Below are positions 11,689 through 29,595 of a stretch of DNA of 38,968 nucleotides, one piece after another. Location of the stretch: the sequence record DRR723986_9070. One strand, given 5' to 3'. Position numbers and translations under genes: made by a program. Under the pieces are notes generated by a model. The model did not search any database, was not told the origin of the DNA, and was given only the letters and a program-made list of their open reading frames with translations. The stretch's first letter is position 1. Every line of letters begins with the position of its first letter.

Positions 11689-11894
11689 GAGGTCGGGAGA
11701 GTCCGCACAGCCGACTTCGGCATTACATCAGCTTCGCATGCGCAGCGAATGGCCGGTTCCGTTGGGCTGCACTAAAGCGTAAGGTTACACGGTGAATGGC
11801 TGATAAGGGCTGTCCGCGTGACTTTGCAAAGGTCACTAACTGCGCAAAGCGGCCATCTCCAGCGGATGGCTGCTGCCAGCGCAAAGCGGTCGTT
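11689..11894. repeat. Intergenic degenerate repeat cluster 2
   Basis: Dyads at 11689-11718, 11829-11857 and 11865-11894, and a full 67-bp unit at 11746-11812. Confidence 0.75.
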
Positions 11895-11975
11895 TGCCTA
11901 TCATCTAAGATGTTGCCTGACCTAGGCCTAAAGGAACTTAATCCGAGAGCTTTGCGAAGTCTGATGACAGCTCTA

Positions 11976-12167
11976 TTACAGCTTAGGTGGTGTTTGGATC
12001 ATTTTAGTCATGCGACGATTCAGTTCCTTCTCAATGATATTCGACTCGTAAGGTTTCATTTTTTTCCACCTTAGGCATTCCTCCCGTGTGCGGGCACAGC
12101 CAAGACACCAGCCACTCGGGCCAGTAAACTCACAAACATCGATGCAGGGGCTTTTGCGTTTTTTCAT
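11976..12167 (-). CDS. DUF1289-family small Cys-rich protein
   Basis: SPCIDVC...GWCLGCARTREE..RW motif. Start placed at ATG 12167 (MKKRKSPC). Confidence 0.88.
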   Translation of the reverse strand: MKKRKSPCIDVCEFTGPSGWCLGCARTREECLRWKKMKPYESNIIEKELNRRMTKMIQTPPKL

Positions 12168-12328
12168 AGGCGTGAATTTATCGTAAAGGATCGGAGGGTC
12201 AATCAATTGCATTGACAGCTGTTGCTTCAAGAGGTGGCATTGGTTTGAACTTAAGTAGTTGGATGACCACCCTTACGCCCTTCTTACTTCGGAGTATGGA
12301 CAGGCGCAGCCGGACCTACGGACTAACA

Positions 12329-12450
12329 GCAGTCAGCCCAAAGCAAACCCAACCCGCCCTAAGTTAGGCTGGACGCCCTGATGCAGAGAGAGCGGCTTCA
12401 GGCCAATCGCTGCGCCTCGCACTGAGGGCTGCTTAGTGGTGATTGCTGCG
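12329..12450. repeat. Intergenic degenerate repeat cluster 3
   Basis: 12329-12344 is the exact reverse complement of 15722-15737 (GCTTTGGGCTGACTGC). Further GCTGC-containing degenerate units extend to about 12450. Confidence 0.6.
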
Positions 12451-12534
12451 GCACCAAAGGCAACCTTGTGGTTTAGCTTGTCACTTATCGCCAATCGCCT
12501 AGTGTTAAAGGAAGCACAACTGGAAAGGCTTCGT

Positions 12535-13950
12535 ATGCTGCGTCATGCTCTATGTATTTTCCTTCTAGTCCTGAGCGGCTTGATGGTCCTCATTGTGCCG
12601 TCCGCCTATGCACAAACGATTGATGACTCCGGCCAAACACAGCTCCCGTCCGAAGACCCCACGCCCATGCTGACTGAAGCTGGCGAAATCGATATCGACA
12701 AGTTGGCCAAGGAATTCAATCTGCCTTCACGTATCCTGGATCCTCGGATCGAAAGCCAGCGTTTGGAGCTTTTGTTATTGCCGCTGACTGAGAAGCAGCT
12801 CGCCGCGGCATCCGAGGCCTGGCAGCGCATTGTTCAGGAACAAACTCAAGACGTGGTCGATGCCACGTTGCGGGTCAGTGAAATGGACGGGGAAACCGCT
12901 GATCTATTTCGAGGGCGCGTCACCGAACTTGCCGAAAAACGTCGGCACCTATTCGACAATTTTGTTCTCGTCTTGAACGACTGGCAGAAAAAAGGCGGTG
13001 ACGCGGATGAAATCGCCAAATACCGGGCCTACCGCAGCTCCATTATCATCGACGAAATCCGCAACGCGGATGTTGAAACTTTGCGCCAGCGCACGGTGAA
13101 GTGGCTCGCAGCGCGTGACGGCGGCATCGAAGTCGCAATTGATGGGGCAGTCGTTGTGGTGTCCCTACTCGGGTTGCTATTTGTAGCTAGGATAATCCGC
13201 GCCGTGACCCGACGTGGGATGAGTCGAGTAAAAGGCATGTCGTTTCTAATGGCTGCCTTTTTGGGTGGGCTCTTTTATTGGCTGACCCTGGTCATCGGGT
13301 TGATACTAGTTCTGTCGCTTCTGGGCATGGACGTTACACCGCTGTTCGCCGTGGTTGGTGGAGCCAGTTTTATTTTGGCCTTTGCTATGCAGGAAACTAT
13401 CGCCAACTTTTTCAGCGGACTTATGATCATGATGAATAAACCATTCGACGAAGGTGACTATGTCGACCTTGAAGGTTTTGCCGCGGGCACCGTCCAACAG
13501 ACCAACTTGATTTCAACGACCATTGCCACGGTCGACAACAAGATCATCGCTGTCCCGAATAACAGGGTCTGGAACAGCGTGATTACCAATGTCACGGCCA
13601 GCTCAACACGACGCGTCGATATGGTCTTCGGCATCAGTTATTCTGACAGCATAGGACATGCGATCAATCTGCTCGAAGAGCTGATCGAGGCCCACCCGCT
13701 TGCGCTGGAGACGCCTAAACCGGTGATCTGCGTCGGAGAGTTGGCAGATTCTTCAGTCAACCTACTGTGTCGTCCTTGGTCGAAGACAGAGGACTACTGG
13801 GAGCTATACTGGGGTATGCAACAGCTGGTGAAAGAACGTTTTGACGCAGAAGGTATCTCGATCCCATTCCCGCAACGTAGCGTGCATTTGGAAAAGGCTA
13901 GCCCCGATCTTGAAACACAAAAAGCGGCATCGGTTATAGACACGGCCTGA
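12535..13950 (+). CDS. MscS-family small-conductance mechanosensitive channel with a periplasmic helical N-terminal domain
   Basis: Signal peptide ending SAYA. FAMQETIANFFSGLMIMMNKPFDEGDYV, VPNNRVWNSVITN, RRVDMVFGISY, ELADSSVN, GISIPFPQRSVH. ATG 12535 follows GGAAAGG. Confidence 0.93.
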   Translation: MLRHALCIFLLVLSGLMVLIVPSAYAQTIDDSGQTQLPSEDPTPMLTEAGEIDIDKLAKEFNLPSRILDPRIESQRLELLLLPLTEKQLAAASEAWQRIVQEQTQDVVDATLRVSEMDGETADLFRGRVTELAEKRRHLFDNFVLVLNDWQKKGGDADEIAKYRAYRSSIIIDEIRNADVETLRQRTVKWLAARDGGIEVAIDGAVVVVSLLGLLFVARIIRAVTRRGMSRVKGMSFLMAAFLGGLFYWLTLVIGLILVLSLLGMDVTPLFAVVGGASFILAFAMQETIANFFSGLMIMMNKPFDEGDYVDLEGFAAGTVQQTNLISTTIATVDNKIIAVPNNRVWNSVITNVTASSTRRVDMVFGISYSDSIGHAINLLEELIEAHPLALETPKPVICVGELADSSVNLLCRPWSKTEDYWELYWGMQQLVKERFDAEGISIPFPQRSVHLEKASPDLETQKAASVIDTA

Positions 13951-13991
13951 GTACATACGCTTGCTGATTGTATGCCATGTGCGCCAAGGTA

Positions 13992-14762
13992 TCAGTTGCA
14001 TTGGTCGTATCGATAATCGCCGAACTCCAGCCAGTTTTCACCACCATCCTGAAAGACCAGAAACTCCGATCTGTCTTCTCCCAGCAGAGCGACCACGAAA
14101 CTCTTCGGGGGCTCTGAGTTTCCAAAATAGCTATAGGCGGTCATAGCCCTAGTTGCCTCACCGTTAACAGTAACCCGCGCATCCCATTCCCCCTCTGGAT
14201 TATCGAGGATCAGATATTCGATCTGGCGCTTCACACCGCCACCGCCGCAATAGACCACGCCTTCGGGTGCCTCGTACTGCGCGGCACTCTGCGTGCCACC
14301 ACTGCATGCAGACCGTAGCGAGTTGATCATTGCACCTGACCCTTTCAAATCAAATATTCCATAGGTGATATCCTGATCGATCATAGACAGGCTGACTGAT
14401 GCGTTCGCCGCTATCTGATCCAGCACATAGCTGTAGTCCGCTCCGTTCCGGAACACGACTTCTACAGGAAAATTGTCAACGATCTGAATATCCGCATTTT
14501 CCTGACCAGCCTGAAAGGCCCCCACTTCAGTTGTTCCGTTTTTCATGAACCGAATGGACAAACCCTGTTTGGCGACAATGTCCTGGCTATCTTCGTACCC
14601 CTCCGGTGCGAAACGGATGCGGTCGCATTGCAGTTCCAACGTTGAATTGTTGGTCTGAATAAATGCATTCGGGGTGGTACCTGAACTGAAAGCCCAATCC
14701 GCAAAGGCAGGGGATGACACCGTCAGCACCAGTGCAACGCTTCCAAGAATGCGGTTTTTCAT
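13992..14762 (-). CDS. Secreted hypothetical protein (two putative domains, 4 Cys)
   Basis: Signal peptide ending PAFA, GGAG RBS, 256 aa, Ser/Gly/Ala linker near aa 153-162. Confidence 0.85.
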   Translation of the reverse strand: MKNRILGSVALVLTVSSPAFADWAFSSGTTPNAFIQTNNSTLELQCDRIRFAPEGYEDSQDIVAKQGLSIRFMKNGTTEVGAFQAGQENADIQIVDNFPVEVVFRNGADYSYVLDQIAANASVSLSMIDQDITYGIFDLKGSGAMINSLRSACSGGTQSAAQYEAPEGVVYCGGGGVKRQIEYLILDNPEGEWDARVTVNGEATRAMTAYSYFGNSEPPKSFVVALLGEDRSEFLVFQDGGENWLEFGDYRYDQCN

Positions 14763-14840
14763 AAGATTTCTCCGGAGTGTATCAGTAGTTTATTGAGAGG
14801 CGTACAAGATGAATTTCCTCATTCGCCATATGGCTTTGGC

Positions 14841-15356
14841 TCAAATCACTGGAGAACCATATTCATTGTTTCCATCCTGTAACGGTCGGGTCAGCCACCA
14901 GATCATCAGAACAGAGAGAATGAGTTGCAGAGCCAAGACAACGGCCAATCCAGTGATCCCAAGGATGGCCGCTGGCTCCCTCAGGGCTTCGGGATCACGC
15001 CCACCTTGCTCAAGAACTGAAAAGATGGCCACGTCGCTAAACAGCATGATCATCGTAACGACGCCGAGTGCCGTCGGCAGTAGCAAATACCATCCGGGTC
15101 TCCCGGTGTCATGCAGTCGCCGCCACCCAGCAGCAAGCATAGGAACGACAACGGCGAGTTGGAAAACTGGGGTCAAGACCTGCGCGCCTTCGCCGGTCTT
15201 AGGATCGACGCCAAAAAATAATGTATCGAGCACAGCCAAAACAACACTCAGCAGAACCATGAACAAGACAAACCACCAGTATTCGGAACGCGCCGCGCGT
15301 CCCGCAAAAACAAAATATTTACTGAGGCATGTTTTGATTGCTTCAATGAAACCCAT
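14841..15356 (-). CDS. DUF805 (YhaH/YhaI-like) membrane protein
   Basis: KYFVFAGRAARSEYWWF, RRLHDTGRPGWYLL, GNNEYG. Confidence 0.93.
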   Translation of the reverse strand: MGFIEAIKTCLSKYFVFAGRAARSEYWWFVLFMVLLSVVLAVLDTLFFGVDPKTGEGAQVLTPVFQLAVVVPMLAAGWRRLHDTGRPGWYLLLPTALGVVTMIMLFSDVAIFSVLEQGGRDPEALREPAAILGITGLAVVLALQLILSVLMIWWLTRPLQDGNNEYGSPVI

Positions 15357-15489
15357 TTTCCTTACCCCCTGAAACTTTGACTTACACTTTTGACTGTAAG
15401 CAAATTAATGCAAGGAGAAGATTACCGCGCTGCAGGTGCGTCAGTTGGCTTTGGCTGCGCTGCCGTTATCCCCTGTTCGGAAATGCTGC

Positions 15490-15921
15490 GCGATGCACGA
15501 ATGACCGCAACGCGAAGGCTGCAACCCTGCATAGGAAACACCGGTGAAGGTCGGCAGTGGGCCGGACACGCTCCGAAAGGAGCCGACAGTTTGCAGTTTT
15601 GAAGGGGCAGCTTGCGATACCAGCGAAATCGCTCGTGCTTGGTTGAATGGCCGCTTTCGGTGAAATGTTTCGCAAATCTCGCGAATGCAGTATCCGGAGC
15701 CTCGCGCCAGATCTGATGACCGCTTTGGGCTGACTGCAGCCAATCCGTACCTGGTGCAGCGAACGGCAGTAGGGAGCCCATTTTGGCCGAATTTCTGTGC
15801 CGTAGCTAAAGTCCGTTCTAGGGTGACAATAAAAATCAGCCTCGAAATTCGGCCCATTGGAGACCTTCATTTTGTCAAACCACGCCGCAGCGCAGCGCTT
15901 GCGTTGCGGTCATTCGCTGCG
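15490..15921. repeat. Intergenic degenerate repeat cluster 4 (two inverted 67-bp units with internal dyads)
   Basis: 67-bp units at 15498-15564 (+) and 15850-15916 (-) share a perfect 16-mer. TGAATGGCCGCTTTC at 15644-15658. Dyads at 15715-15744 and 15762-15791. Confidence 0.8.
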
Positions 15922-16137
15922 CCTGAGAGATTTATGCGTTGTTCAAGGACGGCAGAGCGGACTAAATTGACGTCGTATCCAGCCGAGGGAAACCGCATCG
16001 GTTGGTGTATTCAGCCAATATTGTCATGCCATATCTCGTGTCTTAGCGCCTCTTTAATGGGGTAATCCGCGAAAAATTCTGCCTTGCTTTGATATCACAG
16101 GATAGTGCTGAGAATGAAATGCAGCTGGGGCAAATGT

Positions 16138-16650
16138 TCAGGGCGGCGCAATCAAGGTTGCTGTGACTTCGATGAGGACTGGCGCGTTTCTGGGCAGGCT
16201 TTTCACGCCAATCACGGCACGGACATGTCGCCCTTGGTCCCCCAATGTTTCGTTAAAGTAGTGTGACGCGCCGTCGGCTACAGCCGAAATATCCTCAAAT
16301 GTATCGTCATGTGCCACGTAACAGGTCAGGCGAAGTATTCGGTCAAGATTGCTAAGCCCGCCGGCGGAATGATTTAGCCATGCAAGAGCTTGTTGGGCAC
16401 AAATCCGAGCAGATTGCGCCGCTTCTTTCGCAGAAACATCGAGGCCAACTTTTCCGGTGTGGGACAGTTCTCCGTTTTGTTTAGAGATTTGCCCCGCCAC
16501 AAAAGCCACCTTGTCGGTAAAAGTCACCAGTTCATAAGGGTATCTTGTTCCCTCTGGCGCAGGAAGGCTGCGCACGATTTCTGCGAGGCGCAAAGCAACC
16601 ACTCGATCAGTTTCATGTGAATTATTAGTGACGCTACTCATGTTATGCAT
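16138..16650 (-). CDS. Rid (YjgF/YER057c/UK114)-family protein
   Basis: FVAGQI, GKVG.DVS, VADGAS, GRHVRAVIGVKSLPRNAPVLIE (conserved Arg and Glu). Start overlaps the TRAP permease stop. Confidence 0.9.
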   Translation of the reverse strand: MHNMSSVTNNSHETDRVVALRLAEIVRSLPAPEGTRYPYELVTFTDKVAFVAGQISKQNGELSHTGKVGLDVSAKEAAQSARICAQQALAWLNHSAGGLSNLDRILRLTCYVAHDDTFEDISAVADGASHYFNETLGDQGRHVRAVIGVKSLPRNAPVLIEVTATLIAPP

Positions 16651-18520
16651 CTTTTGGATTTGAGGATTTCAGGTTGTATCTTTGCGCCATCCACACACCA
16701 ATGATGCCGACTAAGCCGATTGCATTCAGCACGAGGGTTGGTGTGATCAATAGCGCTGCGCCAATGAGAAGCACGCCGCGACCGATCCAGTTCAATGATC
16801 GGCCCCCAAGCCAGCCTGTCAGCGCGATAGATAGACAGACAATCGCAACACCGGAACGCGCCAATACGGTGATGAGGTCGGGCCAATTCCCCTGACCAAG
16901 CAATTCTGAATTGGCGACAAACAGGAAGGGAATCACATATGCGGGCATCCCTAGCAAGAATGCACGCCATCCGACGGCGTTGGAGCTTGTGTCCGCTATC
17001 GGGGCCGCCGCAAATGCGGCCACAGCGACAGGTGGCGTGATTTGCCCAAGTACCGCGTAGTAAAACACAAACAAATGCGCTGCGAGCGGATCCGCTCCCA
17101 GCTCTACCAGAGCCGGGGCAACGAGCGTGGCTTGAATGATATATGCGGGTGTTGTTGGCATTCCCATGCCGAAAATAAACGCAGCAATCATCGCGAGGAA
17201 TAGAGCCACGTAAAGGTTACCGTCTGCGAATGCGATGACCAAGCTGCTGAATCGAAATCCAAGTCCAGAAATCTGAACAATTCCAACAATGATACCGGCA
17301 GAGGCACAGGCGATTGCGACCGTTACAGCGGCGCGGGCGCCCAGTTCTAGCCCTTTGGCCAACACTGCAGGTGAAACCCAAGTTGACCGGCGCAAAAACG
17401 GCGTGGCAAGCGTTGCGACGACCCCATAGAAGGCACATAAGCTTGGGGTATATCCTTGGACGAGGAAGGTCATGATCGCGACAAGGGGAAACAGGAAAGT
17501 CCAGCCTGCCTTAAACTCGCGCCAAGTTGTTCCTTTTTCGCTGCGCGCAAGTGGCTGCAGCCCATGCTTCAGCGCTTCCCAGTGCACGGCCACAAACAAG
17601 GATGCGAAAAACAGAAAAGCTGGGAGTGCGGCAGCGGTTATGACGTCCTGGTAACTGATCCCAAGGATGGCCGCCATGAGGAACGCGGCGGCGCCCATAA
17701 TCGGGGGGGTGATCTGCCCGCCAGTCGAAGCTACGGCTTCAACAGCTCCCGCGAAGGCCCTCGGGTAGCCCAGTTTTTTCATCATTGGAATGGTGATCGC
17801 ACCCGTCGTCGCCACATTGGCAACGGAACTGCCAGACATAGTCCCCATCAGAGCGCTGGCGACGACCGCCATTTTGGCTGGGCCACCACGTGTGGATCCA
17901 GTTGCGGCTTTGGTGACATTTACGAAAAAATCCCCTCCACCGATGACTTGCAGTAGCGACCCGAAGACCACAAACAAGAAGATAAAGTTTGTAGACACGC
18001 CGAGGGCAACACCAAAAATGCCCTCAAAGCTGAAATACATTTGATCAACGAATTCATTGATGCCGACGCCTTTATGGGCAAGTGGCCGCAAGAAATCGAC
18101 ATGGCGCAGATAGGGGCCGACAAAACCGTAGGCGATGAAAAACAGACACAGCCCGGTGATCGCTTTGCCCAAAGATCGGCGTGTGAGTTCCAGAACAACA
18201 AGGATCGTTCCAAAGGCGACAAACAATTCTATCGGGGTCGCCACTTGTGTCCAGGGCGGGCGGATGACGATGTACTGATGGAATACGATGAGGTACCCAA
18301 CACAGACGCAAGACAGGGCAATCAAAGCAGCATCAATTGATTTTCCAAGTCGAGTGTCTGACCAGCGATAAATCAAAAATCCGATAACCAGCGAGAATAG
18401 AAGGTGGGCGCCCCGCACAATGAGGTCGGGTAAAATTAAGAACGGTGAGGCAACCAGCAGGTGAAACAGAGCCATTGTAACCGCTAACGCGGCAACGGTT
18501 TTTTCAACATTTCCAGTCAT
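16643..18520 (-). CDS. TRAP transporter fused 4TM/12TM permease (TAXI-associated)
   Basis: RGGPAKMAVVASALMGTMSGSSVANV, EAVASTGGQITPPIMGAAAF, GMGMPTTPAY, ITPPVA. Confidence 0.95.
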   Translation of the reverse strand: MTGNVEKTVAALAVTMALFHLLVASPFLILPDLIVRGAHLLFSLVIGFLIYRWSDTRLGKSIDAALIALSCVCVGYLIVFHQYIVIRPPWTQVATPIELFVAFGTILVVLELTRRSLGKAITGLCLFFIAYGFVGPYLRHVDFLRPLAHKGVGINEFVDQMYFSFEGIFGVALGVSTNFIFLFVVFGSLLQVIGGGDFFVNVTKAATGSTRGGPAKMAVVASALMGTMSGSSVANVATTGAITIPMMKKLGYPRAFAGAVEAVASTGGQITPPIMGAAAFLMAAILGISYQDVITAAALPAFLFFASLFVAVHWEALKHGLQPLARSEKGTTWREFKAGWTFLFPLVAIMTFLVQGYTPSLCAFYGVVATLATPFLRRSTWVSPAVLAKGLELGARAAVTVAIACASAGIIVGIVQISGLGFRFSSLVIAFADGNLYVALFLAMIAAFIFGMGMPTTPAYIIQATLVAPALVELGADPLAAHLFVFYYAVLGQITPPVAVAAFAAAPIADTSSNAVGWRAFLLGMPAYVIPFLFVANSELLGQGNWPDLITVLARSGVAIVCLSIALTGWLGGRSLNWIGRGVLLIGAALLITPTLVLNAIGLVGIIGVWMAQRYNLKSSNPKDA

Positions 18521-18598
18521 GAGGGAGACCCTTCCAGAGCGCGCGCCTGAGGCACACTCGATTTCTCAGTGTTGTTTATTGAAGGTAAAGGTGGTCGA

Positions 18599-18631
18599 GG
18601 CTCACGTGAAACGTATATTTCCACGTGAGCC
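18599..18631 (-). terminator. Stem-loop after the TAXI gene (mRNA stabiliser or partial terminator)
   Basis: Perfect 10-bp stem GGCTCACGTG/CACGTGAGCC, 7 bp past the SBP stop. No strong U-tract. Confidence 0.6.
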
Positions 18632-18638
18632 GGTATTG

Positions 18639-19652: not shown

Positions 19653-19746
19653 TTTAACCCTCCCGATTTTTGATAGGTGAAATAGGGATCTAAATTTGCT
19701 TTCGTGCAATTGCTTTTATCAGATTTTTGAGCAAAAAGGTTCATCT

Positions 19747-19763
19747 TATAGTTTTTAGCTATA
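19747..19763. promoter_or_regulatory. LysR T-N11-A recognition box
   Basis: TATAG-N7-CTATA dyad about 95 bp upstream of the TAXI start, just downstream of the LysR gene. Confidence 0.65.
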
Positions 19764-19794
19764 GGTAAATAGGCGCCACGTTACCGCAAACCTC

Positions 19795-20993: not shown

Positions 20994-21203
20994 AAGGTCC
21001 CTATCTGACCATTGCAGGTCTTGGTGTTGTTTGCAGTATTTGCGACGGCGCTTGCCAGCCTTAGAATGACCGCCTTTCGCTCATCTTAAGCAATGCATGT
21101 GCCAAAGCGGCTAACGGCAACTCTCCGCCGTCGCTGCATTGCATTCGTTTAAGGTCGGTTTTGTCCGCAGTGCTGCCCTCTGACCAACGGCAGGTGTGGG
21201 CCG
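20994..21203. repeat. Intergenic degenerate repeat cluster 5
   Basis: GAATGACCGC (near 21064), dyad AAGGTCGGT-TTT-GTCCGC-AGT-GCTGCCCTC (21151-21180), terminal box AACGGCAGGTGTGGGCCG (21186-21203). Confidence 0.65.
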
Positions 21204-21334
21204 TCATTTACTGCACATGCTCGGCTACATGCAAATCTACCTTCAAAGACTGTGGATGCCCGCTGAATGTCGAGCAAGACAGGTCAACCAGCTAACCCTA
21301 CAGAGAAAACAGGCTTAAAGCTTCTATTGAAAGG

Positions 21335-21946: not shown

Positions 21947-22045
21947 CGTTTTTCGGTTCTCGTTCTCAGTCAATACAGGCCTCAATTCGTTTCCAGTGAT
22001 ACCTAACAAATGGCTTGGGTCATTACTAACGCATATTTGTTTTCG

Positions 22046-22075
22046 TTGACAGCTGAATAAACGTATGTTCATTTC
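22046..22075 (+). promoter_or_regulatory. Sigma70 -35 box with a palindromic TetR operator in the spacer
   Basis: Perfect TTGACA (22046-22051), then TGAATAAACGTATGTTCA (22054-22071; 14/18 self-complementary), upstream of the aminotransferase. Confidence 0.72.
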
Positions 22076-22102
22076 GTGAAGAATGTTACGACAGGACGAA
22101 TC

Positions 22103-23494
22103 ATGACACTGACGAACTCTGACTTCCAAAAAGTCCGTGAATGGGACAACAAAAACTTCATTCACCCGTGGGAAGGCATGCCCTATCTAGGTGAAAATGA
22201 GCGCACCTTCGCAGAGGGTGGCGAGGGCATCTATGTAACCACGGAAACGGGCGATCGTTTGATTGACGGACCGGCCGGCATGTGGTGCGTGCAGGTGGGT
22301 TATGGCAATACTGAAATCGCAGATGCTATGGCGCAACAAGCTCGCGAAATGGCGTATTTCTCACCGTTCAATAACGCGAACTCGGCCCCGGCGCGGTTGG
22401 CGCATGAGATTGCAGAACGCACTCCTGGTGATCTGAACCATGTATTTTTCACCACGGGTGGGTCGACAGCAGTAGACAGTGCGCTGCGCTTTATCCAGTT
22501 CCGCAACAATATTATGGGTCGCCCCGAAAAGAAGATCGTGATTTCACGGCAAAAGGCCTATCACGGATCGACTTATCTGGCTGCATCTCTGTCGGGTAAG
22601 GAACGTGACAAAGGGTGGCTGGACCAGGCGACCCATCTGACCCATTTTCTACCAGACGTGAACCCGTACCTGCGCCCAGACACACAAAAAATCGACGCTT
22701 TTCTAGATGAAAAAGTTGCGGACCTCGAGAATGCAATTCTTGAAATCGGGCCCGATAAGGTCGCAGCGTTTATCGCCGAACCAATCCTGTGTTCTGGCGG
22801 CGTGATTGTTCCGCCAAAAGGCTATCACAAGCGCTGTCTCGAGATCTGTCACAAACATGATGTTCTGTATATTTCCGACGAGGTCGTGACCGGGTTTGGT
22901 CGCCTTGGCCATTGGTTCGCCTCTGAAGAGGTGTTTGAAATCGTTCCTGACATCATCACCTGTGCCAAGGGTATGACCTCTGGATATGTGCCCATGGGGG
23001 CATGCATTATTTCAGATCGTTTGGTTGCTGATATCTCTGGTGAAAATTCCAAGGGTGCGACGTTCTCCAATGGGTTTACCTACTCTGGCCATCCTGTAAG
23101 TGCGGCCGCAGCCCTGAAGAATATAGAGATTTTTGAACGCGACGGCCTGTTGGAACATGTTCGTGAAATGACGCCTATCTTTGAAAAACGGCTTCAGAAA
23201 CTTGGCGATTTACCCTTGGTTGGCGATGCACGCGGTCAGGGGCTGCTGGGCTGTGTTGACTGCGTCGTGGATGCATCCGTGGATGATCTGGAGCAAGATA
23301 AAAACATTGGCGTTATGATTGATGCACATTGTCAGGCTCAAGGTCTGATTCTGCGGCCAATCATCAATATGTGCGTGTTCTCGCCGCCTTTGATTATCTC
23401 TGAACCGCAGATCCACGATATGTTTGACATCATCGACAAAAGCATCCGGATGACCACAGATGATTTGGTACGCCAGGGCGTTAAACTGGCATGA
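22103..23494 (+). CDS. Class III PLP aminotransferase (omega-amine/putrescine transaminase-like)
   Basis: DGPAGMWCVQVGYG, GGSTAVD, AYHGST, AFIAEPI, SDEVVTGFGRLG, DIITCAKG (PLP Lys), GFTYSGHP. ATG 22103 follows AGGA. Confidence 0.95.
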   Translation: MTLTNSDFQKVREWDNKNFIHPWEGMPYLGENERTFAEGGEGIYVTTETGDRLIDGPAGMWCVQVGYGNTEIADAMAQQAREMAYFSPFNNANSAPARLAHEIAERTPGDLNHVFFTTGGSTAVDSALRFIQFRNNIMGRPEKKIVISRQKAYHGSTYLAASLSGKERDKGWLDQATHLTHFLPDVNPYLRPDTQKIDAFLDEKVADLENAILEIGPDKVAAFIAEPILCSGGVIVPPKGYHKRCLEICHKHDVLYISDEVVTGFGRLGHWFASEEVFEIVPDIITCAKGMTSGYVPMGACIISDRLVADISGENSKGATFSNGFTYSGHPVSAAAALKNIEIFERDGLLEHVREMTPIFEKRLQKLGDLPLVGDARGQGLLGCVDCVVDASVDDLEQDKNIGVMIDAHCQAQGLILRPIINMCVFSPPLIISEPQIHDMFDIIDKSIRMTTDDLVRQGVKLA

Positions 23495-24513
23495 GCTCTT
23501 CGTATCAAATGCCAGCGGAATGGGCGCCGCATGAACGTTGCTGGATGGCCTGGCCATTATCAGAGCGGACTTTTGGGGCACAACTTGACGCCGCGCGCAA
23601 TGAGTATGCTGCCGTGGCGCAAGCCATTGCAGAATTTGAGCCGGTCACGATGCTTTACGATCCGGACAATTGCGCAGGGGTTCGTGAACTGGCGCAGGTC
23701 GCGAACATCACCCTCATGGAATGCCCATTAAACGACAGCTGGCTTCGCGACACAGGGCCAACATTTGTACTTGATGCAAACGGCACACTTGCAGGTGTCG
23801 ATTGGGCATTTGATGGCTGGGGTACCGACTGGCCCACTGAAAAAGATGCGAGGATTGCGAAGCATGTGATCACATTAAGTGGCGTGCAATATGTTCAATC
23901 TTCGATGATTTTTGAAGGCGGCGCGCTAAATATAGATGACCATGCCACCATCGTCACCACACGTCAGTGTTTTGAACATCGTACCCGTAATGGTGGCCCT
24001 ACGATGTCAGAAGTCGAAGCTGAGCTTAGCAATCGCCTTGGGGTATCCAAGGTCATCTGGCTGAATGAAACCCTGGAGAATGACAGCACGAATGGTCACG
24101 TCGACGTGGTCGCAGCCTTTGCACCAAATGGCACTGTCTTGTGCCAAGTTAGCAGTGATCTCGATGACCCTGATTATGATAATCTTCAGGCCAATTTGAA
24201 AATATTGAAAAGTGAAACGGACGCCGCGGGCAAGCCAATGAACGTGGTTGAACTGATTTCTCCACCCGTTTCGCGTCACTCTGACGGCAGCCGCAGAATG
24301 CTGTCATATGCCAACTTTTATGTCGCCAATGGCGGCGTGATTGTTCCGCAATACGGGTTCCCAGACGCAGACGCACGCGCCATGAAAACGATTGCTGATG
24401 TCTTCCCCGATCACAAGGTGATTGGCGTGATGACAAATGCAATTGCCGATGGCGGTGGAAATATTCACTGCATCACACAACAACAACCCAAGACTGGAAG
24501 CCATCATGCGTAA
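23491..24513 (+). CDS. aguA: Agmatine deiminase
   Basis: MPAEWAPH, DSWLRDTGP, EGG, TNGHVD, SYANFY, GGGNIHCITQQQP (catalytic Cys). Confidence 0.95.
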   Translation: MSSSYQMPAEWAPHERCWMAWPLSERTFGAQLDAARNEYAAVAQAIAEFEPVTMLYDPDNCAGVRELAQVANITLMECPLNDSWLRDTGPTFVLDANGTLAGVDWAFDGWGTDWPTEKDARIAKHVITLSGVQYVQSSMIFEGGALNIDDHATIVTTRQCFEHRTRNGGPTMSEVEAELSNRLGVSKVIWLNETLENDSTNGHVDVVAAFAPNGTVLCQVSSDLDDPDYDNLQANLKILKSETDAAGKPMNVVELISPPVSRHSDGSRRMLSYANFYVANGGVIVPQYGFPDADARAMKTIADVFPDHKVIGVMTNAIADGGGNIHCITQQQPKTGSHHA

Positions 24514-25387
24514 AGTCACGCTCGCCGCCACCCAAATGAGCTGTAGTTGGGACAAAGATGACAACATAGCGCGCGCCGAAAAGATGGTTCGCGAGGCCGC
24601 CGGGAAAGGTGCGAATGTTATCCTGATTCAGGAACTATTTGAAACACCTTACTTTTGCATCGAACAAGATCCGAAACATTTAGAACTGGCAACCACCCCC
24701 CACGACAACACCGCTATCCGCCATTTTTCAAAACTGGCCAAAGAGCTTGGCGTAGTCTTGCCCATTTCATTCTTTGAACGTGCTGGTCAGAGTTTCTTTA
24801 ACTCGCTCGCAATGATCGATGCGGACGGGTCAGTCTTGGGCGTGTATCGAAAGTCGCATATTCCAAACGATAAGCTGTATCAGGAAAAGACCTATTTTTC
24901 CCCCGGCGATACGGGTTTCAAAGTTTGGGACACGGCCTTTGGTCGCGTAGGCGCCGCGATTTGTTGGGATCAATGGTTCCCGGAAACCGCGCGTTGTCTG
25001 GCCTTACAGGGAGCAGAAATGCTGCTTTACCCTACTGCGATTGGGTCCGAAGCTGGCCGACCAGATGCAGATTGCATCCCTCACTGGCAAACAGTCATGC
25101 GTGGCCATGCGGGGGCAAATATCATGCCCGTCGTCGCCAGTAATCGTGTCGGACGCGAGGTCGCTACAGGGGATGAAACCCAATCAATGGAGTTTTTTGG
25201 CGGGTCATTCATCTCGGACCATCTGGGGCAAAAAACTGCCGAAGCAGGACGCGAAGAAGGAATGATCCTGACCTCAGAATTTGATCTGGATGAGATCGCA
25301 GAGATGCGCCGCTACTGGGGAGTATTCCGTGACAGACGACCGGATTTATACAAGCCCATTTGCACCTATGACGGACGCATTACCTAA
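24506..25387 (+). CDS. aguB: N-carbamoylputrescine amidase (nitrilase superfamily)
   Basis: QELFETPYFC, YRKSHIP, YQEK.YFSPGD, ICWDQWFPE, YPTAIGSE, FRDRRP. ATG 24506 overlaps the aguA end. Confidence 0.95.
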   Translation: MRKVTLAATQMSCSWDKDDNIARAEKMVREAAGKGANVILIQELFETPYFCIEQDPKHLELATTPHDNTAIRHFSKLAKELGVVLPISFFERAGQSFFNSLAMIDADGSVLGVYRKSHIPNDKLYQEKTYFSPGDTGFKVWDTAFGRVGAAICWDQWFPETARCLALQGAEMLLYPTAIGSEAGRPDADCIPHWQTVMRGHAGANIMPVVASNRVGREVATGDETQSMEFFGGSFISDHLGQKTAEAGREEGMILTSEFDLDEIAEMRRYWGVFRDRRPDLYKPICTYDGRIT

Positions 25388-25413
25388 GTGTTAACTTTGG
25401 GAGGAGAAAACGC

Positions 25414-26271
25414 GTGACAATTGACAGGGAGGCCCGGTCTGGCCTCATACTAGCATCTCCGGCGACATTTTATGTCCTTGCCCTCATCGCGGCACCGATT
25501 GCGTTGACCATCGCTTATTCGTTCTGGACACAAGATTTCGTCTCAATCAAACGCGACTTCACTTTCGCCAACTATAAAGAAGTCTTCACAGATCCACTAT
25601 ACCGGGTGCTTATCCTGCGATCTGTGAAAATTGCCACTTTGGTGACCTTGTTCACGCTCTTGTTAGCCTACCCCCTCGCTTATCACATTGCCTTCAACGT
25701 CCGCCACAAAGCGCTGTGGTTGTTTTTGGTGACCATTCCCTTTTGGACCAGCTACCTTCTGCGGGTGTTTTCATGGAAGGTCATTCTGGCTCAAAATGGC
25801 GTGGTGAATTCCACCCTGCTTTGGTTGGGAATAATCGACAGCCCAATTGATGCATTATTGTATTCCGAAGGGTCCGTCATCGTGACGTTGACCCATGCAT
25901 GGGCTCCCTTTGCGATCCTGCCGATTTTTGTGTCACTCGACAAATTAGACCGCAGCTTGCTTGAAGCCGCCAAAGACCTTGGCGAAGGCCCAATACGTAG
26001 CTTTTTGCGGGTCACCCTGCCCTTGTCGATCCCCGGCCTAATCGGCGCAAGCATGATTGTCTTCATTCCTACGGTCGGCGATTTTGTAACGCCTGCTCTC
26101 GTGGGCGGATCTGACGGCGCGATGATTGCCAATATGATCCAAGTGCAATTTGGCAGCGCAAATAATTGGCCGCTTGGGGCTGCGCTTGCGATCAGCGCCG
26201 TCATCGCGGTGACCTTCGCTGCAAGCCTCTGGGTCCTGGCACTGAAACTCTTAGAACGGAGCCTAAAATGA
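25414..26271 (+). CDS. Polyamine ABC transporter permease (PotB/PotH-like)
   Basis: IPFWTSYLLR, EAA loop (LLEAAKDLG), TPALVGG. GTG start after GGAGG. Confidence 0.93.
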   Translation: MTIDREARSGLILASPATFYVLALIAAPIALTIAYSFWTQDFVSIKRDFTFANYKEVFTDPLYRVLILRSVKIATLVTLFTLLLAYPLAYHIAFNVRHKALWLFLVTIPFWTSYLLRVFSWKVILAQNGVVNSTLLWLGIIDSPIDALLYSEGSVIVTLTHAWAPFAILPIFVSLDKLDRSLLEAAKDLGEGPIRSFLRVTLPLSIPGLIGASMIVFIPTVGDFVTPALVGGSDGAMIANMIQVQFGSANNWPLGAALAISAVIAVTFAASLWVLALKLLERSLK

Positions 26272-27086
26272 CCGTTTTGCAAAAACTGGTGTCGCGCATT
26301 GGCCGTCTTCTGCCAGTCTATGCGGTGTTGTATATGATCTTTCTATACTTACCAATCCTGCTGATCCCTCTATTTTCATTCAATGATTCCAAAGTTTTGG
26401 GCTTCCCACTGTCGGGTTTCACCACTCAATGGTACATCAATCTAAGCGGGGAAACCGCTTTGTTTGGCGCGCTAAAAAACAGCCTACTTGTGGCTTTTAT
26501 CTCTGCTGGATTAGCAACTTCCCTTGGTACGTTGATCGCGCGCGCACTCGCAAAATACCGATATCCGTTCCGCAAAACCACCCAAACCATCGTCATGATC
26601 CCTTTGGTTATGCCCGAAATCATCATCGCGATTTCATTGTTAATCTTGTTCTTAGGCGCGGGACTGGGCACATCCTTATTCACAGTTGTTCTTGGGCATG
26701 TGTTGCTGACCATCCCATTTTGCGTGTCGATCATGACATCCGCATTTGGACAGTTTGACGATTCACTCGAAGAAGCGGCAGTCGACCTTGGCGAAAACAG
26801 TTGGGGGGCGTTGCGCCGCGTCACGCTGCCGGTGGTTGCACCGGGGACTATTTCAAGTTTTCTGATCAGCTTCACTGTCAGTTTCGATGAATTCATCCTA
26901 GCGTTTTTCCTGTCAGGTAACAGCCCCACACTGCCCGTCTATATCTGGAGCCAAGTTCGCTTTCCGGCAAAATTGCCAAACGTGATCGCCCTAGGCTCCC
27001 TGCTTATTCTTGTTTCCTTGCTCTTTTTGTTTGTGGCCGAACACTTCCGCCGCCGCAGCGAAAAATTCAGCTCAGCCCATAAATAG
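26268..27086 (+). CDS. Polyamine ABC transporter permease (PotC/PotI-like)
   Basis: FLYLPI..IPLFSFN, GFTTQWY, LEEAAVDLG, SFDEF, TLPVYIWS. ATGA coupling at 26268. Confidence 0.93.
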   Translation: MTVLQKLVSRIGRLLPVYAVLYMIFLYLPILLIPLFSFNDSKVLGFPLSGFTTQWYINLSGETALFGALKNSLLVAFISAGLATSLGTLIARALAKYRYPFRKTTQTIVMIPLVMPEIIIAISLLILFLGAGLGTSLFTVVLGHVLLTIPFCVSIMTSAFGQFDDSLEEAAVDLGENSWGALRRVTLPVVAPGTISSFLISFTVSFDEFILAFFLSGNSPTLPVYIWSQVRFPAKLPNVIALGSLLILVSLLFLFVAEHFRRRSEKFSSAHK

Positions 27087-27098
27087 GAGATCCCCAAA

Positions 27099-28193
27099 AT
27101 GGACAAAACAATTGCGGTAGATCTCAGCAATGTCTGCAAATCTTTTGGCACATTCCAAGCGGTCAACGATGTCACGCTTGAACTGAAACAAGGTGAGTTC
27201 TTTTCGCTTTTGGGGCCGTCGGGCTGTGGGAAATCAACGTTGTTGCGCATGATTGCGGGCTTTGAAGACCCCACCAGCGGCAATATCACAATCGACGGAA
27301 ACGATATGTCGGGCATCGAGGCAAATCACCGCCCAACCAATATGGTGTTCCAGAGTTACGCTATTTTTCCTCATCTTTCGGTGGCTGATAACATTGTGTT
27401 TGGCCTGGCCAAATCTGGCCTTAGTAAATCACAGAAACGGGACAAAGCCGAAGAAATGCTTGGCAAAGTCGGCTTATCGGGCCTGGGCCAACGCGGAGCG
27501 CATGAGTTGTCCGGCGGTCAGCGGCAACGTGTTGCTTTGGCGCGCGCTTTGGTGATGGAACCCAAGGTTTTACTGCTGGATGAACCGATGTCTGCGTTGG
27601 ACAAACAGCTTCGTGAACAAATGCAGATGGAGCTTCGATCCCTGCAGCGATCTGTCGGCATCACCTTTTTGATGGTGACCCATGACCAGCATGAGGCAAT
27701 GACAATTTCTGATCGCTGCGGCGTAATGTTTGGTGGTCACCTTGCACAAGTGGACGAGCCGCACCTGTTATACCAATCGCCAAAATCCAAACAAGTTGCT
27801 GATTTTATCGGCGGTATGAACTTTTTGGATGGGACTATCTCAGACCGTGAGGGCGACACGCTTCATGTGGACCTTCCAGACTTTGGGCGTCTGTCATGTG
27901 AGGCCCATGGCGTACAAAGTGGCACCGGTTCAGGTGTCACGCTGGGACTGCGGCCAGAGCGCATCCATGTAGGGAAATCGCCCCCCGAAGCCGCCGACGT
28001 GACGGTGCAAGCCCGCGTAAAAGATCGCGCATTTTACGGTGAAACCATCCACTATTTTCTAACCATAGAAGGCTGCGACACAGATCTAACTGCATCTGTA
28101 ACCAACTTCGAACGTGCCGAGCATTTTGAAATTGGCGCCCAGGTTTTTCTCGGTTTCCGTGGAGGTGCCGTGGTCGCACTTCCCCCAGAATAA
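27099..28193 (+). CDS. Polyamine ABC transporter ATPase (PotA/PotG-like)
   Basis: GPSGCGKST, MVFQSYAIFPHL, LSGGQRQRVALARAL, LLLDEP, VTHDQ, C-terminal TOBE-like region. Confidence 0.95.
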   Translation: MDKTIAVDLSNVCKSFGTFQAVNDVTLELKQGEFFSLLGPSGCGKSTLLRMIAGFEDPTSGNITIDGNDMSGIEANHRPTNMVFQSYAIFPHLSVADNIVFGLAKSGLSKSQKRDKAEEMLGKVGLSGLGQRGAHELSGGQRQRVALARALVMEPKVLLLDEPMSALDKQLREQMQMELRSLQRSVGITFLMVTHDQHEAMTISDRCGVMFGGHLAQVDEPHLLYQSPKSKQVADFIGGMNFLDGTISDREGDTLHVDLPDFGRLSCEAHGVQSGTGSGVTLGLRPERIHVGKSPPEAADVTVQARVKDRAFYGETIHYFLTIEGCDTDLTASVTNFERAEHFEIGAQVFLGFRGGAVVALPPE

Positions 28194-28222
28194 TCAGAAC
28201 AATCGACCAACAGGAGATCTCT

Positions 28223-29275
28223 ATGACACTAAAAACGCTTACATTCGCAACAGCCTTGACCGCTGTTTCTGCCACCGCTGGATGGGCTGACAAAATCACG
28301 GTTTTTGATTGGTCCGGCTATGATGACCCTGGCTTCTTTGGTGCCTATTTAGAAACCCACGGCGCGGCCCCAAATTTCTCTTTCTTTGCCAGTGAGGAGG
28401 AAGGCTTTAACAAACTGCGCACCGGCTTCTCTGCTGATCTTGCGCATCCTTGTCTGGGCGCCCTGCCAAAGTTCAAAGCGGCAGGTTTAACGCAACCCAT
28501 TGATACAAGCCGCCTAGACAATTGGGACAAAATCCTACCGGCTCTCACCGGATTGTCGGATTTTGTGGATGCGGATGGCACTGTTTGGGCTGTGCCTTTT
28601 GATTGGGGCAACACCGGCATCGTGTATCGCACAGACCGAATTGACGCCACCGCGGCCACGGTTCAATCCTTTGCTAATCCAGAGTATGCGGGCCGTGTTT
28701 CCATGCCTGACAATGTGTATGACGCCTATGCTCTCGCATCCCTCGCGATCGGGTTGAAAACCTGGGAAGACGTCTCCATGAATCACGTGGATCAAATGTC
28801 TGAATTCTTGCGTTCGGTGCATGGCAATGTGCGGTTCTATTGGGCCGACCAGGGGCAGTTGGACAGCGCAATTAAAACCGGTGAAATTGATCTGGCCTTT
28901 GCTTGGAATGCAACAGAGCTGGCGCTGCAAGCGGATAGCATTCCTGTCACAATGGTACGGGATGCCGAAATTGGTGTGTCCAGCTGGGCCTGCGGGTATG
29001 TGCATCTAAAGGGTGGCTCAGGGAATGATGACGCCGTTTATGATTATCTGAACGCGATTACCGATGTGGCGACCGGTCAATATATCGTCGAATCCTGGGG
29101 CTATGCTCATGCTAATGCGGATACATACGCGGCCGTGCCGCAAGAGACATTGGCAAGCTATGGCTATGATGATGTCGAAAACTTCCTAGAAGACAGCCTG
29201 TTCACAGTCTCATTGCCACAAGATATTTCTGCGGCAATGGTGAAAGAGTTCGAACGCATCAAGGCTGGATTCTAA
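28223..29275 (+). CDS. Polyamine ABC transporter substrate-binding protein (PotD/PotF-like)
   Basis: Signal peptide ending AGWA, FDWSGY, VPFDWGNTGIVYRTD, C-terminal FERIKAGF. AGGAG RBS. Confidence 0.92.
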   Translation: MTLKTLTFATALTAVSATAGWADKITVFDWSGYDDPGFFGAYLETHGAAPNFSFFASEEEGFNKLRTGFSADLAHPCLGALPKFKAAGLTQPIDTSRLDNWDKILPALTGLSDFVDADGTVWAVPFDWGNTGIVYRTDRIDATAATVQSFANPEYAGRVSMPDNVYDAYALASLAIGLKTWEDVSMNHVDQMSEFLRSVHGNVRFYWADQGQLDSAIKTGEIDLAFAWNATELALQADSIPVTMVRDAEIGVSSWACGYVHLKGGSGNDDAVYDYLNAITDVATGQYIVESWGYAHANADTYAAVPQETLASYGYDDVENFLEDSLFTVSLPQDISAAMVKEFERIKAGF

Positions 29276-29280
29276 ACAAA

Positions 29281-29347
29281 CAAATGGCTGGCCTGGCGAT
29301 GCTGCAATGCAACCCCAGGCCGCTACACAAACGGCAGCAATGGGCCG
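29281..29347 (+). repeat. 67-bp boundary unit directly after the SBP stop codon
   Basis: CAAATGGCTG-N10-GCTGC-N7-C-N16-AACGGC-N6-GGGCCG, aligning without gaps to the copies at 11746, 15498 and 15850. Confidence 0.72.
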
Positions 29348-29595
29348 TTCGTGATATCTGCCATGATTGCAGCTCCTGGAGGTTGGGACCCAGTCGAACC
29401 CGGATCCCAACCTGCGGAACGGCGTCTGCTCCTTTCAGAGTTTATCCTGATTGGGCATTGTCAGGTTGTTTTCGCTGCCTAAGAAGTAGTCGAACCATGC
29501 GGTTTCTAGCTGCCATTTCGATGGTACATTCATTTCATTTACGAAATGCGGATGCTCGTTGTTGGCGGTAGGTTGAGCGGTCATCTTGTGGCGAC

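Follow-up and report, generated by a model that had tools for sequence, protein, structure and literature searches.

Why does a 67-bp sequence of nearly constant length recur between unrelated groups of genes? The question is raised by a stretch of 38,968 nucleotides from sequence record DRR723986_9070, hereafter the window. A preliminary description of the window had reported four intergenic copies of this sequence with invariant box spacing, and had read them as ends or attachment sites of a gene-capture or cassette system acting in trans. Members of the Roseobacter group serve as models of marine heterotrophy, and their accessory genes vary greatly among genomes and plasmids. To our knowledge, the exchange of small gene sets is poorly understood beyond plasmids, gene transfer agents and insertion sequences. 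We therefore followed the sequence from the window into other genomes.

Copies of the element in the window

The four 67-mers were verified letter for letter at 11746-11812 (+), 15498-15564 (+), 15850-15916 (-) and 29281-29347 (+), and the partial fifth box is indeed present at 21186-21203 (+). Pairwise, the 67-mers have 33-44 identical positions of 67. Leave-one-out HMMs built from the window copies recovered three of them (E 1e-5 to 9e-4) and missed the 29281 copy (E 5.6). A model built from 45 copies of other genomes only, with zero window sequence (R1), detects all four (E 3.6e-19 to 3.9e-12) together with the partial fifth (E 7.9e-4).

With R1, the copies extend beyond the 67-mer. The first element, E1, is full-length from 11691 to 11818 (+; 54.6 bits, E 2.1e-16, model positions 8-135), and the core motif scan places its 3' core (AATGGCTG, spacer ATAA, GGGCTG) at 11795-11812 (+). 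E2, also full-length, occupies 15440..15570 (+; 63.5 bits, E 3.6e-19, model positions 5-135), with its core at 15547-15564. E3 lies inverted with respect to E2 at 15847..15972 (-; 52.0 bits, E 1.4e-15, model positions 8-132), and the two form an inverted element pair around 276 bp, the inverted-repeat arms of which are 88% complementary (pair I8). E4 is a short form without the 5' ~60 nt (29278..29354, +; 40.9 bits, E 3.9e-12, model positions 60-136); as reported previously, its 67-mer begins 5 bp past a stop codon, that of a solute-binding-protein gene ending at 29275. The partial element at 21166..21208 (+; R1 14.3 bits, E 7.9e-4; core scan) has the 3' core only (AACGGCAG, spacer GTGT, GGGCCG), with a GTCCGC-type start before it. 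Four of the five window elements found by R1 are on the plus strand.

Two weaker matches were recorded. A degenerate copy at 15713..15780 (+) has a core ending in GAGCCC instead of GGGCCG and scores weakly (nhmmer E 0.15-0.46, R1 E 0.094). A candidate decayed copy, also weak and uncertain, was found at 6855..6982 (-) in the intergenic gap 6819-7142 (R1 9.5 bits, E 0.024, several insertions); a 15-nt exact match to 15644-15658 was noted for it.

Extent and anatomy of the element

The full 67-bp consensus has at least 121 exact matches in contigs of other genomes, nearly all from Rhodobacterales, against a chance expectation of ~0.002 (a hand estimate from 22 fixed and 5 two-fold positions over ~1.2e12 positions). 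Many of the matches lie at contig ends. When R1 was run on related genomes (E<=1e-6), elements were found in 91 of the 151 Rhodobacterales genomes sampled. Five complete genomes have at least 8-25 matches each; the per-genome counts are lower bounds because 21-150 candidates were scored per genome. The elements are short, intergenic and multicopy, and often stand directly 3' of a gene. No description of them was found in the literature.

In the 45-sequence alignments A1 and A2, from which the element consensus was taken, conservation extends over positions of about -60 to +73, counted from the first base of the 67-mer. The 67-bp unit is thus a real conserved block, but only the 3' half of an element of ~128-135 nt. 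Similarly, the spacing is nearly fixed rather than invariant: in 28 model matches picked without a fixed pattern, the span is exactly 67 nt in 22 (79%), 66 nt in four, 68 nt in one and 58 nt in one.

The element contains three directly repeated arm motifs of ~9 nt, GAAnGKCnG. The 5' motif is followed by a 4-nt spacer and GTCCGC, the middle motif is the box first described as CRAATGRCYG, and the 3' motif forms the 3' core together with a 4-nt spacer and GGGCCG. In many copies, though in part of them only, TTCGCG comes next after GGGCCG. With it, the two 3' arms make an inverted repeat with an 8-nt centre, like that of loxP-type and dif-type cores.

A linked tyrosine recombinase

Among the matches listed, 8 of the 121 consensus-pattern loci have a common downstream gene on the opposite strand. 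Its product, of 210 aa and with little N-terminal extension, matches PF00589 only in Pfam (E 1e-15). In a set of 20 diverse homologues, every residue of its catalytic R..HxxR..H..Y signature (R61, H158, R161, H184 and Y193) is retained in 90% or more of the sequences. The AlphaFold2 model (pLDDT 84.9) has the tyrosine-recombinase catalytic fold, with no predicted helix or strand in the first ~28 residues, and Foldseek returned XerA, XerH, Cre, Tn1549 Int and IntI with probability 1.00 and TM 0.6-0.7. The linked protein is a member of the tyrosine recombinase superfamily. It scores 47 bits with the XerC model (cut-off 335) and 30 bits with the XerD model (cut-off 330), and one of two copies scanned gave 20 bits (E 3e-4) on NF007371 'tyrosine-type DNA invertase' (NCBIfam), the cut-off of which is 222.

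For 8 of the 11 recombinase copies examined in detail, the gene end lies 18-30 nt past the element, and six further adjacent recombinase/element pairs are 19-23 nt apart. The three other copies have no R1-detectable element at their 3' end: that of locus L129 (75-77% identity), that of genome G270 (67%) and that of genome G003, whose last 17 codons are unmatched. The recombinase unit, of ~0.85 kb, has the element core as one boundary and a GAGCCC-ending core as the other, the latter of the type seen also in the window copy at 15713..15780.

Of the 47 recombinase-positive genomes, 41 carry elements; of the 104 recombinase-negative ones, 50 do (odds ratio 7.4 and p 4e-6 by Fisher's test, phylogeny uncorrected). 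This co-occurrence may come partly from shared ancestry. The association with a specific recombinase family, which had been raised as a check on the preliminary description, is thus found both in gene position and across genomes. Individual genomes vary in this respect: G005 has at least 25 element matches and only a recombinase fragment, and G002 and G004 are without the recombinase. In the window, there is no PF00589 protein among the 37 ORFs and tblastn with the recombinase gave nothing, so that any action of the elements there would be in trans.

At 50% clustering, the recombinase family comprises 817 representatives (E<=1e-30). Plasmids of Loktanella, Phaeobacter, Sulfitobacter and Ruegeria carry the recombinase with an adjoining part of the element. 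Enterobacterial plasmids carry 58%-identical relatives; no element was detected beside the one relative examined.

Loss of synteny at the 3' core

Similarity between related loci is lost in or beside the 3'-core spacer in all seven informative groups. In four of four groups (L002/L094, L019/L119, L058/L120 and L068/L107/L109), the loci share upstream DNA and element body, and their downstream sequences are unrelated as soon as the spacer or GGGCCG is reached, which agrees with the junctions in the GGGCYG box anticipated earlier. Three of three groups with the same downstream DNA (L071/L108, L016/L024 and the 8 recombinase loci) have differing element bodies. In one MAG, six near-identical element bodies have both flanks unrelated, and genome G005 has one 115-nt body in two contexts without a single difference, the shared block running from GTCCCG to GGGCCG. 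The break points are not at one nucleotide, some being before the spacer and others after it; they are concentrated in a stretch of ~10 nt at the 3' end of the 130-nt repeat.

This distribution bears on the possibility that the elements are enzyme-less dispersed repeats, the breaks resulting from homologous recombination between copies and the recombinase unit merely landing there preferentially. Breaks of this origin would be spread along the 130 nt. Moreover, the bodies of exchange partners are often only ~55-65% identical (L071/L108, L016/L024 and the window copies), too divergent for efficient homologous exchange, and the recombinase gene is at a fixed 18-30 nt from the core. We therefore consider dispersed repeats unlikely, even though the near-identical copies within a genome (115 nt at 100%, six in one MAG) would support RecA-driven exchange, and even though elements persist in 50 of the 104 recombinase-negative genomes and 3 of the 11 recombinase copies have no adjoining element.

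In the window, a gene module of 3.2 kb (12389..15565) is bounded by cores. It is 93% identical over 3186 nt to G270:C10:230396-233581, and its flanks in the window and in G270 are unrelated on both sides. The module comprises an MscS-type channel gene (12436-13950, Pfam), two ORFs without Pfam match (13992-14762, -; 14809-15372, +) and E2 itself. At one end, the block shared with G270 stops one base past the GGGCCG of the 15498 copy. At the other, it stops inside a minus-strand core-only junction at 12391..12410 (left arm GCGATTGGCC, then a CCGC-type right arm), where the BLAST block ends at 12389 and the window and G270 diverge after the left arm. The two flanking cores are inversely oriented.

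Metagenome contigs were also compared with the window. Two contigs of run X1 match it from 11807 onward, behind a different element tail. In four of four runs a contig match starts at 15743, and in three of the four, contigs are unlike the window after 15778-15782. Two contigs from two studies (X1 record 4 and X2 record 12) are window-like up to 21188, with 16-17 differing letters over about 940-990, and continue with unlike sequence; this break is the start of the left arm of the partial element. Among the contigs matching the window, no usable excision joint was found, and no excised circle and no empty-versus-filled allele pair were observed.

Elsewhere, the elements form arrays. At loci L122, L123 and L124, 17 of 18 matches of at least 20 bits are on the majority strand of their own array and are separated by 1-3 genes in either orientation, the element strand being uniform within arrays regardless of gene orientation. 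Sites lying on one strand between unrelated gene units are what characterizes a cassette array, the likeness being one of function only. IS transposases are also seen inside some arrays. With the core-bounded module shared with G270 and these one-strand arrays, the earlier proposal that the copies mark boundaries between unrelated modules is supported by comparison.

Modules bounded by cores are also known from Acinetobacter plasmids, where discrete gene modules are flanked by short pdif core sites, some of them inverse. A pdif is a 28-bp dif-like site with two 11-bp arms around a 6-bp centre, used by the host XerC/XerD. By analogy, a host enzyme, either XerC/XerD or another chromosomal tyrosine recombinase, could use the cores described here, the 210-aa recombinase being a passenger. 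The inversely oriented cores around the window module resemble those of pdif modules, and the recombinase gene, missing from many element-bearing genomes, has a core on either side as other modules do. However, neither the fixed convergent linkage of gene and full element (8/11) nor the odds ratio of 7.4 is expected for a passenger, the 3' core has no evident likeness to the dif consensus, and a single arm motif repeated three times over ~130 nt speaks for a dedicated protein. Use by a host recombinase is thus quite improbable.

Known site and repeat classes

The preliminary description had separated the element from integron attC sites and from CRISPR, and this distinction holds. The boxes are CRAATGRCYG, GCTGC, AANGKC and GGGCYG, without RYYYAAC/GTTRRRY cores, and at the 3' end the commonest sequence after GGGCCG is TTCGYG, unlike GTTRRRY. 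An attC folding as a single-strand hairpin is also ruled out: the RNAalifold consensus has -1.9 kcal/mol and 8 pairs with 0 compensatory, and single-strand DNA folds of 10 copies have z values of -2.1 to +1.6, 8 of the 10 being no better than shuffles. An IntI with attI at the head of an array was rejected on the score of the linked recombinase on TIGR02249 (22 bits, cut-off 265). As for known RNA families, a search against Rfam 15 matched nothing at gathering score in the window, and nothing at E<=1 in the 12 intact-copy loci that were scanned.

REP/BIME sequences are GC-rich palindromes of 20-40 nt, usually in more than 100 copies per genome and linked to a RAYT transposase. They were excluded, the unit here being ~130 nt without palindromic fold and present in at least 8-25 matches in each of the five complete genomes. 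MITEs are recognized by terminal inverted repeats and a target-site duplication. The A2 consensus shows no inverted repeat joining the element ends other than the arm motif, and no target duplications were seen at the junctions compared among locus groups. It is very unlikely that the element is a non-autonomous MITE-like transposon, a transposase-mobilized repeat of REP type, a 3'-UTR element or a small RNA: a short, intergenic, multicopy sequence often directly after a gene, with many matches at contig ends and IS transposases within some arrays, could be any of these, but no unit-spanning terminal inverted repeats in the alignments, target duplications at the compared junctions, common transposase adjoining the at least 121 loci listed, conserved fold or Rfam match were seen, and strand is uniform within arrays whatever the gene orientation.

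A putative recombination site and its possible role

Overall, we find it reasonably likely that a ~130-bp double-stranded DNA site, of which the 67-bp motif forms the 3' half, serves site-specific recombination by the family of ~210-aa tyrosine recombinases; gene modules are probably joined and swapped at this site by the small recombinase. The comparative evidence (breaks, arrays, a linked recombinase, and none in the window) supports the view that the copies are ends or attachment sites of a cassette system acting in trans.

In the mechanism that we propose from sequence comparison, the ~210-aa recombinases, made of the catalytic domain and a short disordered N-terminal stretch, would bind the arm motifs, and strands would be exchanged at predicted cleavage positions within the 3'-core spacer and, in some cases, the 5'-core spacer. 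The upstream direct repeats may serve as accessory sites that set the synapse geometry, and this would account for a spacing that is nearly fixed. Modules of 0.1-8 kb ending in a site could be excised, inserted beside other sites and inverted, possibly to this day, leading to arrays of unrelated modules with sites on one strand between them. The recombinase gene would itself be such a module, of ~0.85 kb. In the window, with its four sites and several core remnants, movement would depend on an enzyme encoded elsewhere.

More tentatively, marine Rhodobacterales might possess a second, integron-independent gene-cassette system, with double-stranded ~130-bp sites bearing accessory repeats and with a 210-aa tyrosine recombinase that is itself a cassette. 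Found also on plasmids, it would put together multi-gene modules in chromosomal arrays, reshuffle them and could act as a main engine of the group's well-known genome plasticity. A system of site and recombinase bounding modules would offer a concrete mechanism for the variation of accessory genes in the Roseobacter group. R1 and the recombinase family together would make a practical marker with which mobile modules could be mapped across hundreds of genomes and metagenomes. At ~210 aa, the recombinase is also a possible compact recombination tool, and the simple repeated arm motif makes the site attractive for studying how a short recombinase chooses its site and direction.

Relation to known systems

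Like integrons, the arrays consist of unrelated gene units with 60-140-bp sites on one strand between them; the sites have conserved boxes, free spacers and a nearly fixed length, the enzyme is a tyrosine recombinase, and units without it would move in trans. The site also appears to travel with its upstream unit and to be crossed over at its 3' end. Unlike attC, the element has neither the RYYYAAC/GTTRRRY boxes nor single-strand hairpin potential. The linked recombinase is not IntI and, with only 210 aa, has no room for the IntI insertion. Its gene is convergent to the site as a unit of its own, whereas the IntI gene is divergent beside attI, and the units here have 1-8 genes in either orientation.

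The site of the Tn4430 recombinase TnpI, the IRS, is described as an inverted-repeat core with direct copies of the binding motif, accessory copies that control synapsis and directionality (PMC2847244). The element would share this pattern, judging by the GAAnGKC motif, present in three direct copies, and by the inverted arm of some elements; there is no sequence likeness between the two. In contrast with the arrays reported here, TnpI resolves Tn3-family cointegrates, with one site per element. TnpI is not known to build module arrays.

With pdif modules, the resemblance is in gene modules bounded by tyrosine-recombinase-type cores in varied contexts, on plasmids and chromosomes, and in the inverse flanking cores of the module at 12389-15565. 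The element differs in its ~130 bp with putative accessory repeats and in its linkage to a small recombinase gene of its own. The DNA invertases FimB and FimE are, like the linked recombinase, of ~200 aa with little N-terminal extension, there is the weak match to NF007371, and the inverted E2/E3 pair around 276 bp could be compared to an invertible segment; the NF007371 score is however far under the 222-bit cut-off, and sites and genomic arrangement differ. Finally, in tycheposons and similar islands built by tandem integration, tyrosine-recombinase units of marine bacteria are stacked at copies of one attachment sequence, giving rise to variable islands. Their repeats are tRNA gene fragments at few fixed loci, whereas the ~130-bp element is autonomous and occurs at numerous loci as well as on plasmids.

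A widespread intergenic element

On re-reading of the window, each of the four 67-mers, like the partial box, has exactly the sequence and coordinates quoted in the preliminary description. The 67-mers occupy the four largest intergenic gaps of the window, and their pairwise identity is 33-44 of 67. The window has a G+C content of 49-63%, and its genes are of ordinary chromosomal kinds: ABC and TRAP transporters, gamma-glutamyltranspeptidase, an MscS channel, LysR and TetR regulators, polyamine genes and an RND efflux pump. Leave-one-out HMMs built from the window alone find three copies (E 1e-5 to 9e-4) and miss the one at 29281 (E 5.6). Taken by itself, the window makes only a moderate case for the element.

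The decisive test of the observation is the search of other genomes. In a species-representative genome collection, at least 121 exact matches to the full consensus of the preliminary description were found, as compared to about 0.002 expected by chance (hand estimate). Among the matches listed, only four records lack a name that is Rhodobacterales-type or unspecific alphaproteobacterial; these are metagenome bins labelled Azotimanducaceae, Hyphomicrobiales, Alteromonadaceae and Verrucomicrobiales. The profile-model scan that had been suggested was done with R1, a sequence-only model made from 45 non-redundant foreign copies and containing no window sequence. R1 recovers the four window copies and the partial fifth. 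Three are full length: E1 (11691-11818, plus strand; E 2.1e-16), E2 (15440-15570, plus; E 3.6e-19) and E3 (15847-15972, minus; E 1.4e-15). E4 (29278-29354, plus; E 3.9e-12) is a short form that lacks the 5′ ~60 nt, and the partial copy lies at 21166-21208 (plus; E 7.9e-4). The observation of a repeated intergenic element is confirmed, and it extends beyond the 67-mer.

Anatomy of the element

At the pattern loci, the conserved stretch starts ~60 nt ahead of the 67-mer and continues ~6 nt past it. Alignment of the 45 non-redundant copies gives a ~130-nt consensus that holds the arm motif GAAnGKCnG three times, in direct orientation. At the 5′ end, the motif is followed by 4 nt and GTCCGC. The middle motif corresponds to the first box of the preliminary description. 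At the 3′ end, the motif is followed by 4 nt and GGGCCG; we call this unit the core. In copies with TTCGCG after GGGCCG, the 3′ arm pair forms a 9-bp inverted repeat around 8 nt. The spacing, first described as invariant, proves nearly fixed rather than absolute: among 28 matches from 175 kb, chosen by model and not by a fixed pattern, the span is exactly 67 nt in 22, 66 nt in four, 68 in one and 58 in one.

A palindromic GAsTTTGCAAAG is located ~8-45 nt past GGGCCG of several elements (window 11820-11831 and loci L002, L028, L049, L138 and L139). Metagenome contigs show it behind many different upstream sequences, with loose ends at 11820; a conserved module start or an operator are possible readings.

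Known classes of repeats were compared with the element. An RNA element was rejected: Rfam gave no match to the window at gathering score and none to 12 intact loci at E<=1, and RNAalifold returned no consensus structure (-1.9 kcal/mol, 0 compensatory pairs). An attC-like or REP-like hairpin was rejected as well, since single-strand DNA of 8/10 copies folds no better than shuffles. The absence of an upstream ORF common to the 121 listed loci excludes the end of a transposase-bearing element; TnpB guide RNA, IS end and group II intron end were dropped. As for a coding reading, an open frame runs through many copies, no three-base rhythm in column conservation was visible by eye, and conservation ends at GGGCCG.

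Arrays and distribution

In five complete genomes, R1 finds at least 8-25 matches per genome (lower bounds, with 150 candidates scored in each), strongly clustered on one strand. In three 20-kb stretches, the element is present in nearly every intergenic gap, and 17 of 18 matches of at least 20 bits lie on the majority strand of their array. Between array elements are 1-3 genes in either orientation and of unrelated functions, including glyoxalases, LysR regulators, hydrolases, MFS transporters, unknowns and insertion sequences. In the family sample, 91 of 151 genomes have an R1 match at E<=1e-6, several of them reaching at least 21 matches with 21 candidates scored per genome. The short half-pattern with one mismatch gave genome counts barely above those of a reversed-pattern control and was discarded for mapping genomes.

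On the 4.37-Mb chromosome of one genome (G005:C1), the two largest arrays, at 381950-397477 (minus) and 3930203-3941203 (plus), occupy mirror-like positions. This hints that orientation is tied to replication direction.

Synteny breaks at the cores

In 4/4 groups of pattern loci, the upstream flank and the element body are common (91-100% identity) while the downstream DNA is unrelated. Divergence begins in the 4-nt spacer for L002/L094, L019/L119 and L068/L107/L109, and right after GGGCCG for L058/L120. Conversely, in 3/3 groups the downstream DNA is common and the bodies belong to different subtypes. In a single metagenome bin, six bodies are near-identical from GTCCGC onward, and the DNA on either side of them is unrelated. 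Two contexts within G005 share a 115-nt body at 100% identity, from GTCCCG to GGGCCG.

The window itself shows such breaks. Among 401 family genomes searched, the segment 12389-15565 (MscS gene, two ORFs and E2) recurs in G270 with 93% identity between unrelated flanks. One end of the block is one base past GGGCCG of E2, and the other is inside a minus-strand core (12391-12410). In addition, the assembled contigs of four metagenome studies contain close relatives, most pieces being at least 95% alike. These contigs switch partner at 11807, 15743, 15778-15782 and 21188, all at cores or within a few nucleotides of them. Among the assembled contigs, one from run X4 links 11846 with 15741, one side measuring 27 letters, and another links 11820 with 15743 across opposite strands. 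The two joints fall in repeated pieces and are not assignable to the window's organism; they speak neither for nor against excision or inversion.

A tyrosine recombinase linked to the element

Eight of the 121 listed loci share a downstream flank, whose opposite strand encodes a tyrosine recombinase. At these loci the stop codon is ~22 nt beyond GGGCCG, and a hairpin partly made of GGGCCG lies between the two. Of 11 copies examined in detail, 8 are convergent with an element, full or partial, and end 18-30 nt beyond it. The other three have no adjoining element: two are divergent (67-77% identity), and the third is the copy in G003, whose 3′ end (last 17 codons) is unmatched. Six more adjoining pairs were found in sampled genomes. 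In the upstream direction, nucleotide similarity among recombinase loci reaches as far as a second core, which ends in GAGCCC and lies ~100 nt ahead of the start codon. Hence, the recombinase gene too forms a unit, of ~0.85 kb, flanked by two cores in direct orientation. This unit is also carried by Loktanella, Phaeobacter, Sulfitobacter and Ruegeria plasmids; the window has no recombinase homologue. Elements are present in 41/47 recombinase-positive vs 50/104 recombinase-negative genomes (odds ratio 7.4, p 4e-6, phylogeny ignored).

The protein has ~210 residues, with PF00589 as its sole Pfam match, and scores far under the NCBIfam cut-offs for XerC, XerD and IntI. Residues R61, H158, R161, H184 and Y193 are conserved. 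The structure model (pLDDT 84.9) predicts a generic tyrosine-recombinase catalytic fold, with no predicted helix or strand from residue 1 to ~28. In a structure search it was about as close to XerA as to XerH, Cre, Tn1549 Int or IntI, which places it in no named subfamily. The family comprises 817 representatives at 50% clustering (E<=1e-30), annotated at source only as integrase or XerC-like.

Homologues of 58% identity reside on Escherichia, Klebsiella, Shigella and Enterobacter plasmids, annotated only 'site-specific integrase'. R1 found no element alongside the one on E. coli plasmid pZPK-H29 (L140; NZ_LR999865.1 31334-31936). Truncation or internal stop codons affect many of the copies from the sampled genomes, and protein libraries contain many homologues that are fragments from very short contigs; decay appears to be frequent in the family.

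Proposed mechanism and relation to known systems

Site anatomy, arrays, break positions, and recombinase linkage and co-occurrence are directly supported. The recombinase would bind the arm motifs and exchange strands across the central 4-8 nt of the 3′ core and, in some cases, of the 5′ core; this would account for a spacer that can stay with either partner. Both upstream direct repeats may act as accessory sites that set synapse geometry and hence the fixed spacing, on the model of TnpI at the Tn4430 resolution site (PMC2847244). Modules, the gene units between cores, would travel as circles and accrete beside existing sites. Against this mechanism, many element-bearing genomes have no recombinase gene, breaks spread over more than one nucleotide, and no reaction product was seen in assembled contigs of public runs.

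The element is functionally like an integron, yet three of the four defining integron features tested are lacking. In architecture it resembles the TnpI site, and its modules, like pdif modules, are bounded by recombinase cores. A search of the full-text literature outside subscription journals returned no description of the element/recombinase system, and it goes unmentioned in passages of PMC8138268, which classifies tyrosine recombinases, and of PMC13386836, a 2026 survey of mobile elements in Sulfitobacter. Comparative evidence supports the initial reading of the repeats as putative sites of a gene-capture or cassette system, and we rate the element as probably belonging with site-specific recombination cassette systems.

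Other pieces of the window

E2 (plus) and E3 (minus) form an inverted pair (15440-15972) enclosing 276 bp with a degenerate copy. Given a recombinase of invertase-like size, this segment could be invertible. Beside E1, the intergenic stretch 11967-12244 has short counterparts of 82-86% identity in two other family genomes (G190 and G084), and its summed contig depth is raised in run X4. A further multicopy piece would fit, as would a small gene or RNA that is conserved. In the gap after E4, a 133-nt piece (29711-29843) is 84% identical to G348:C5:34616-34748. Finally, the 10-nt unit ATCGTCGCCG is present in three to four tandem copies at 969-1008, inside overlapping ORFs without Pfam match.
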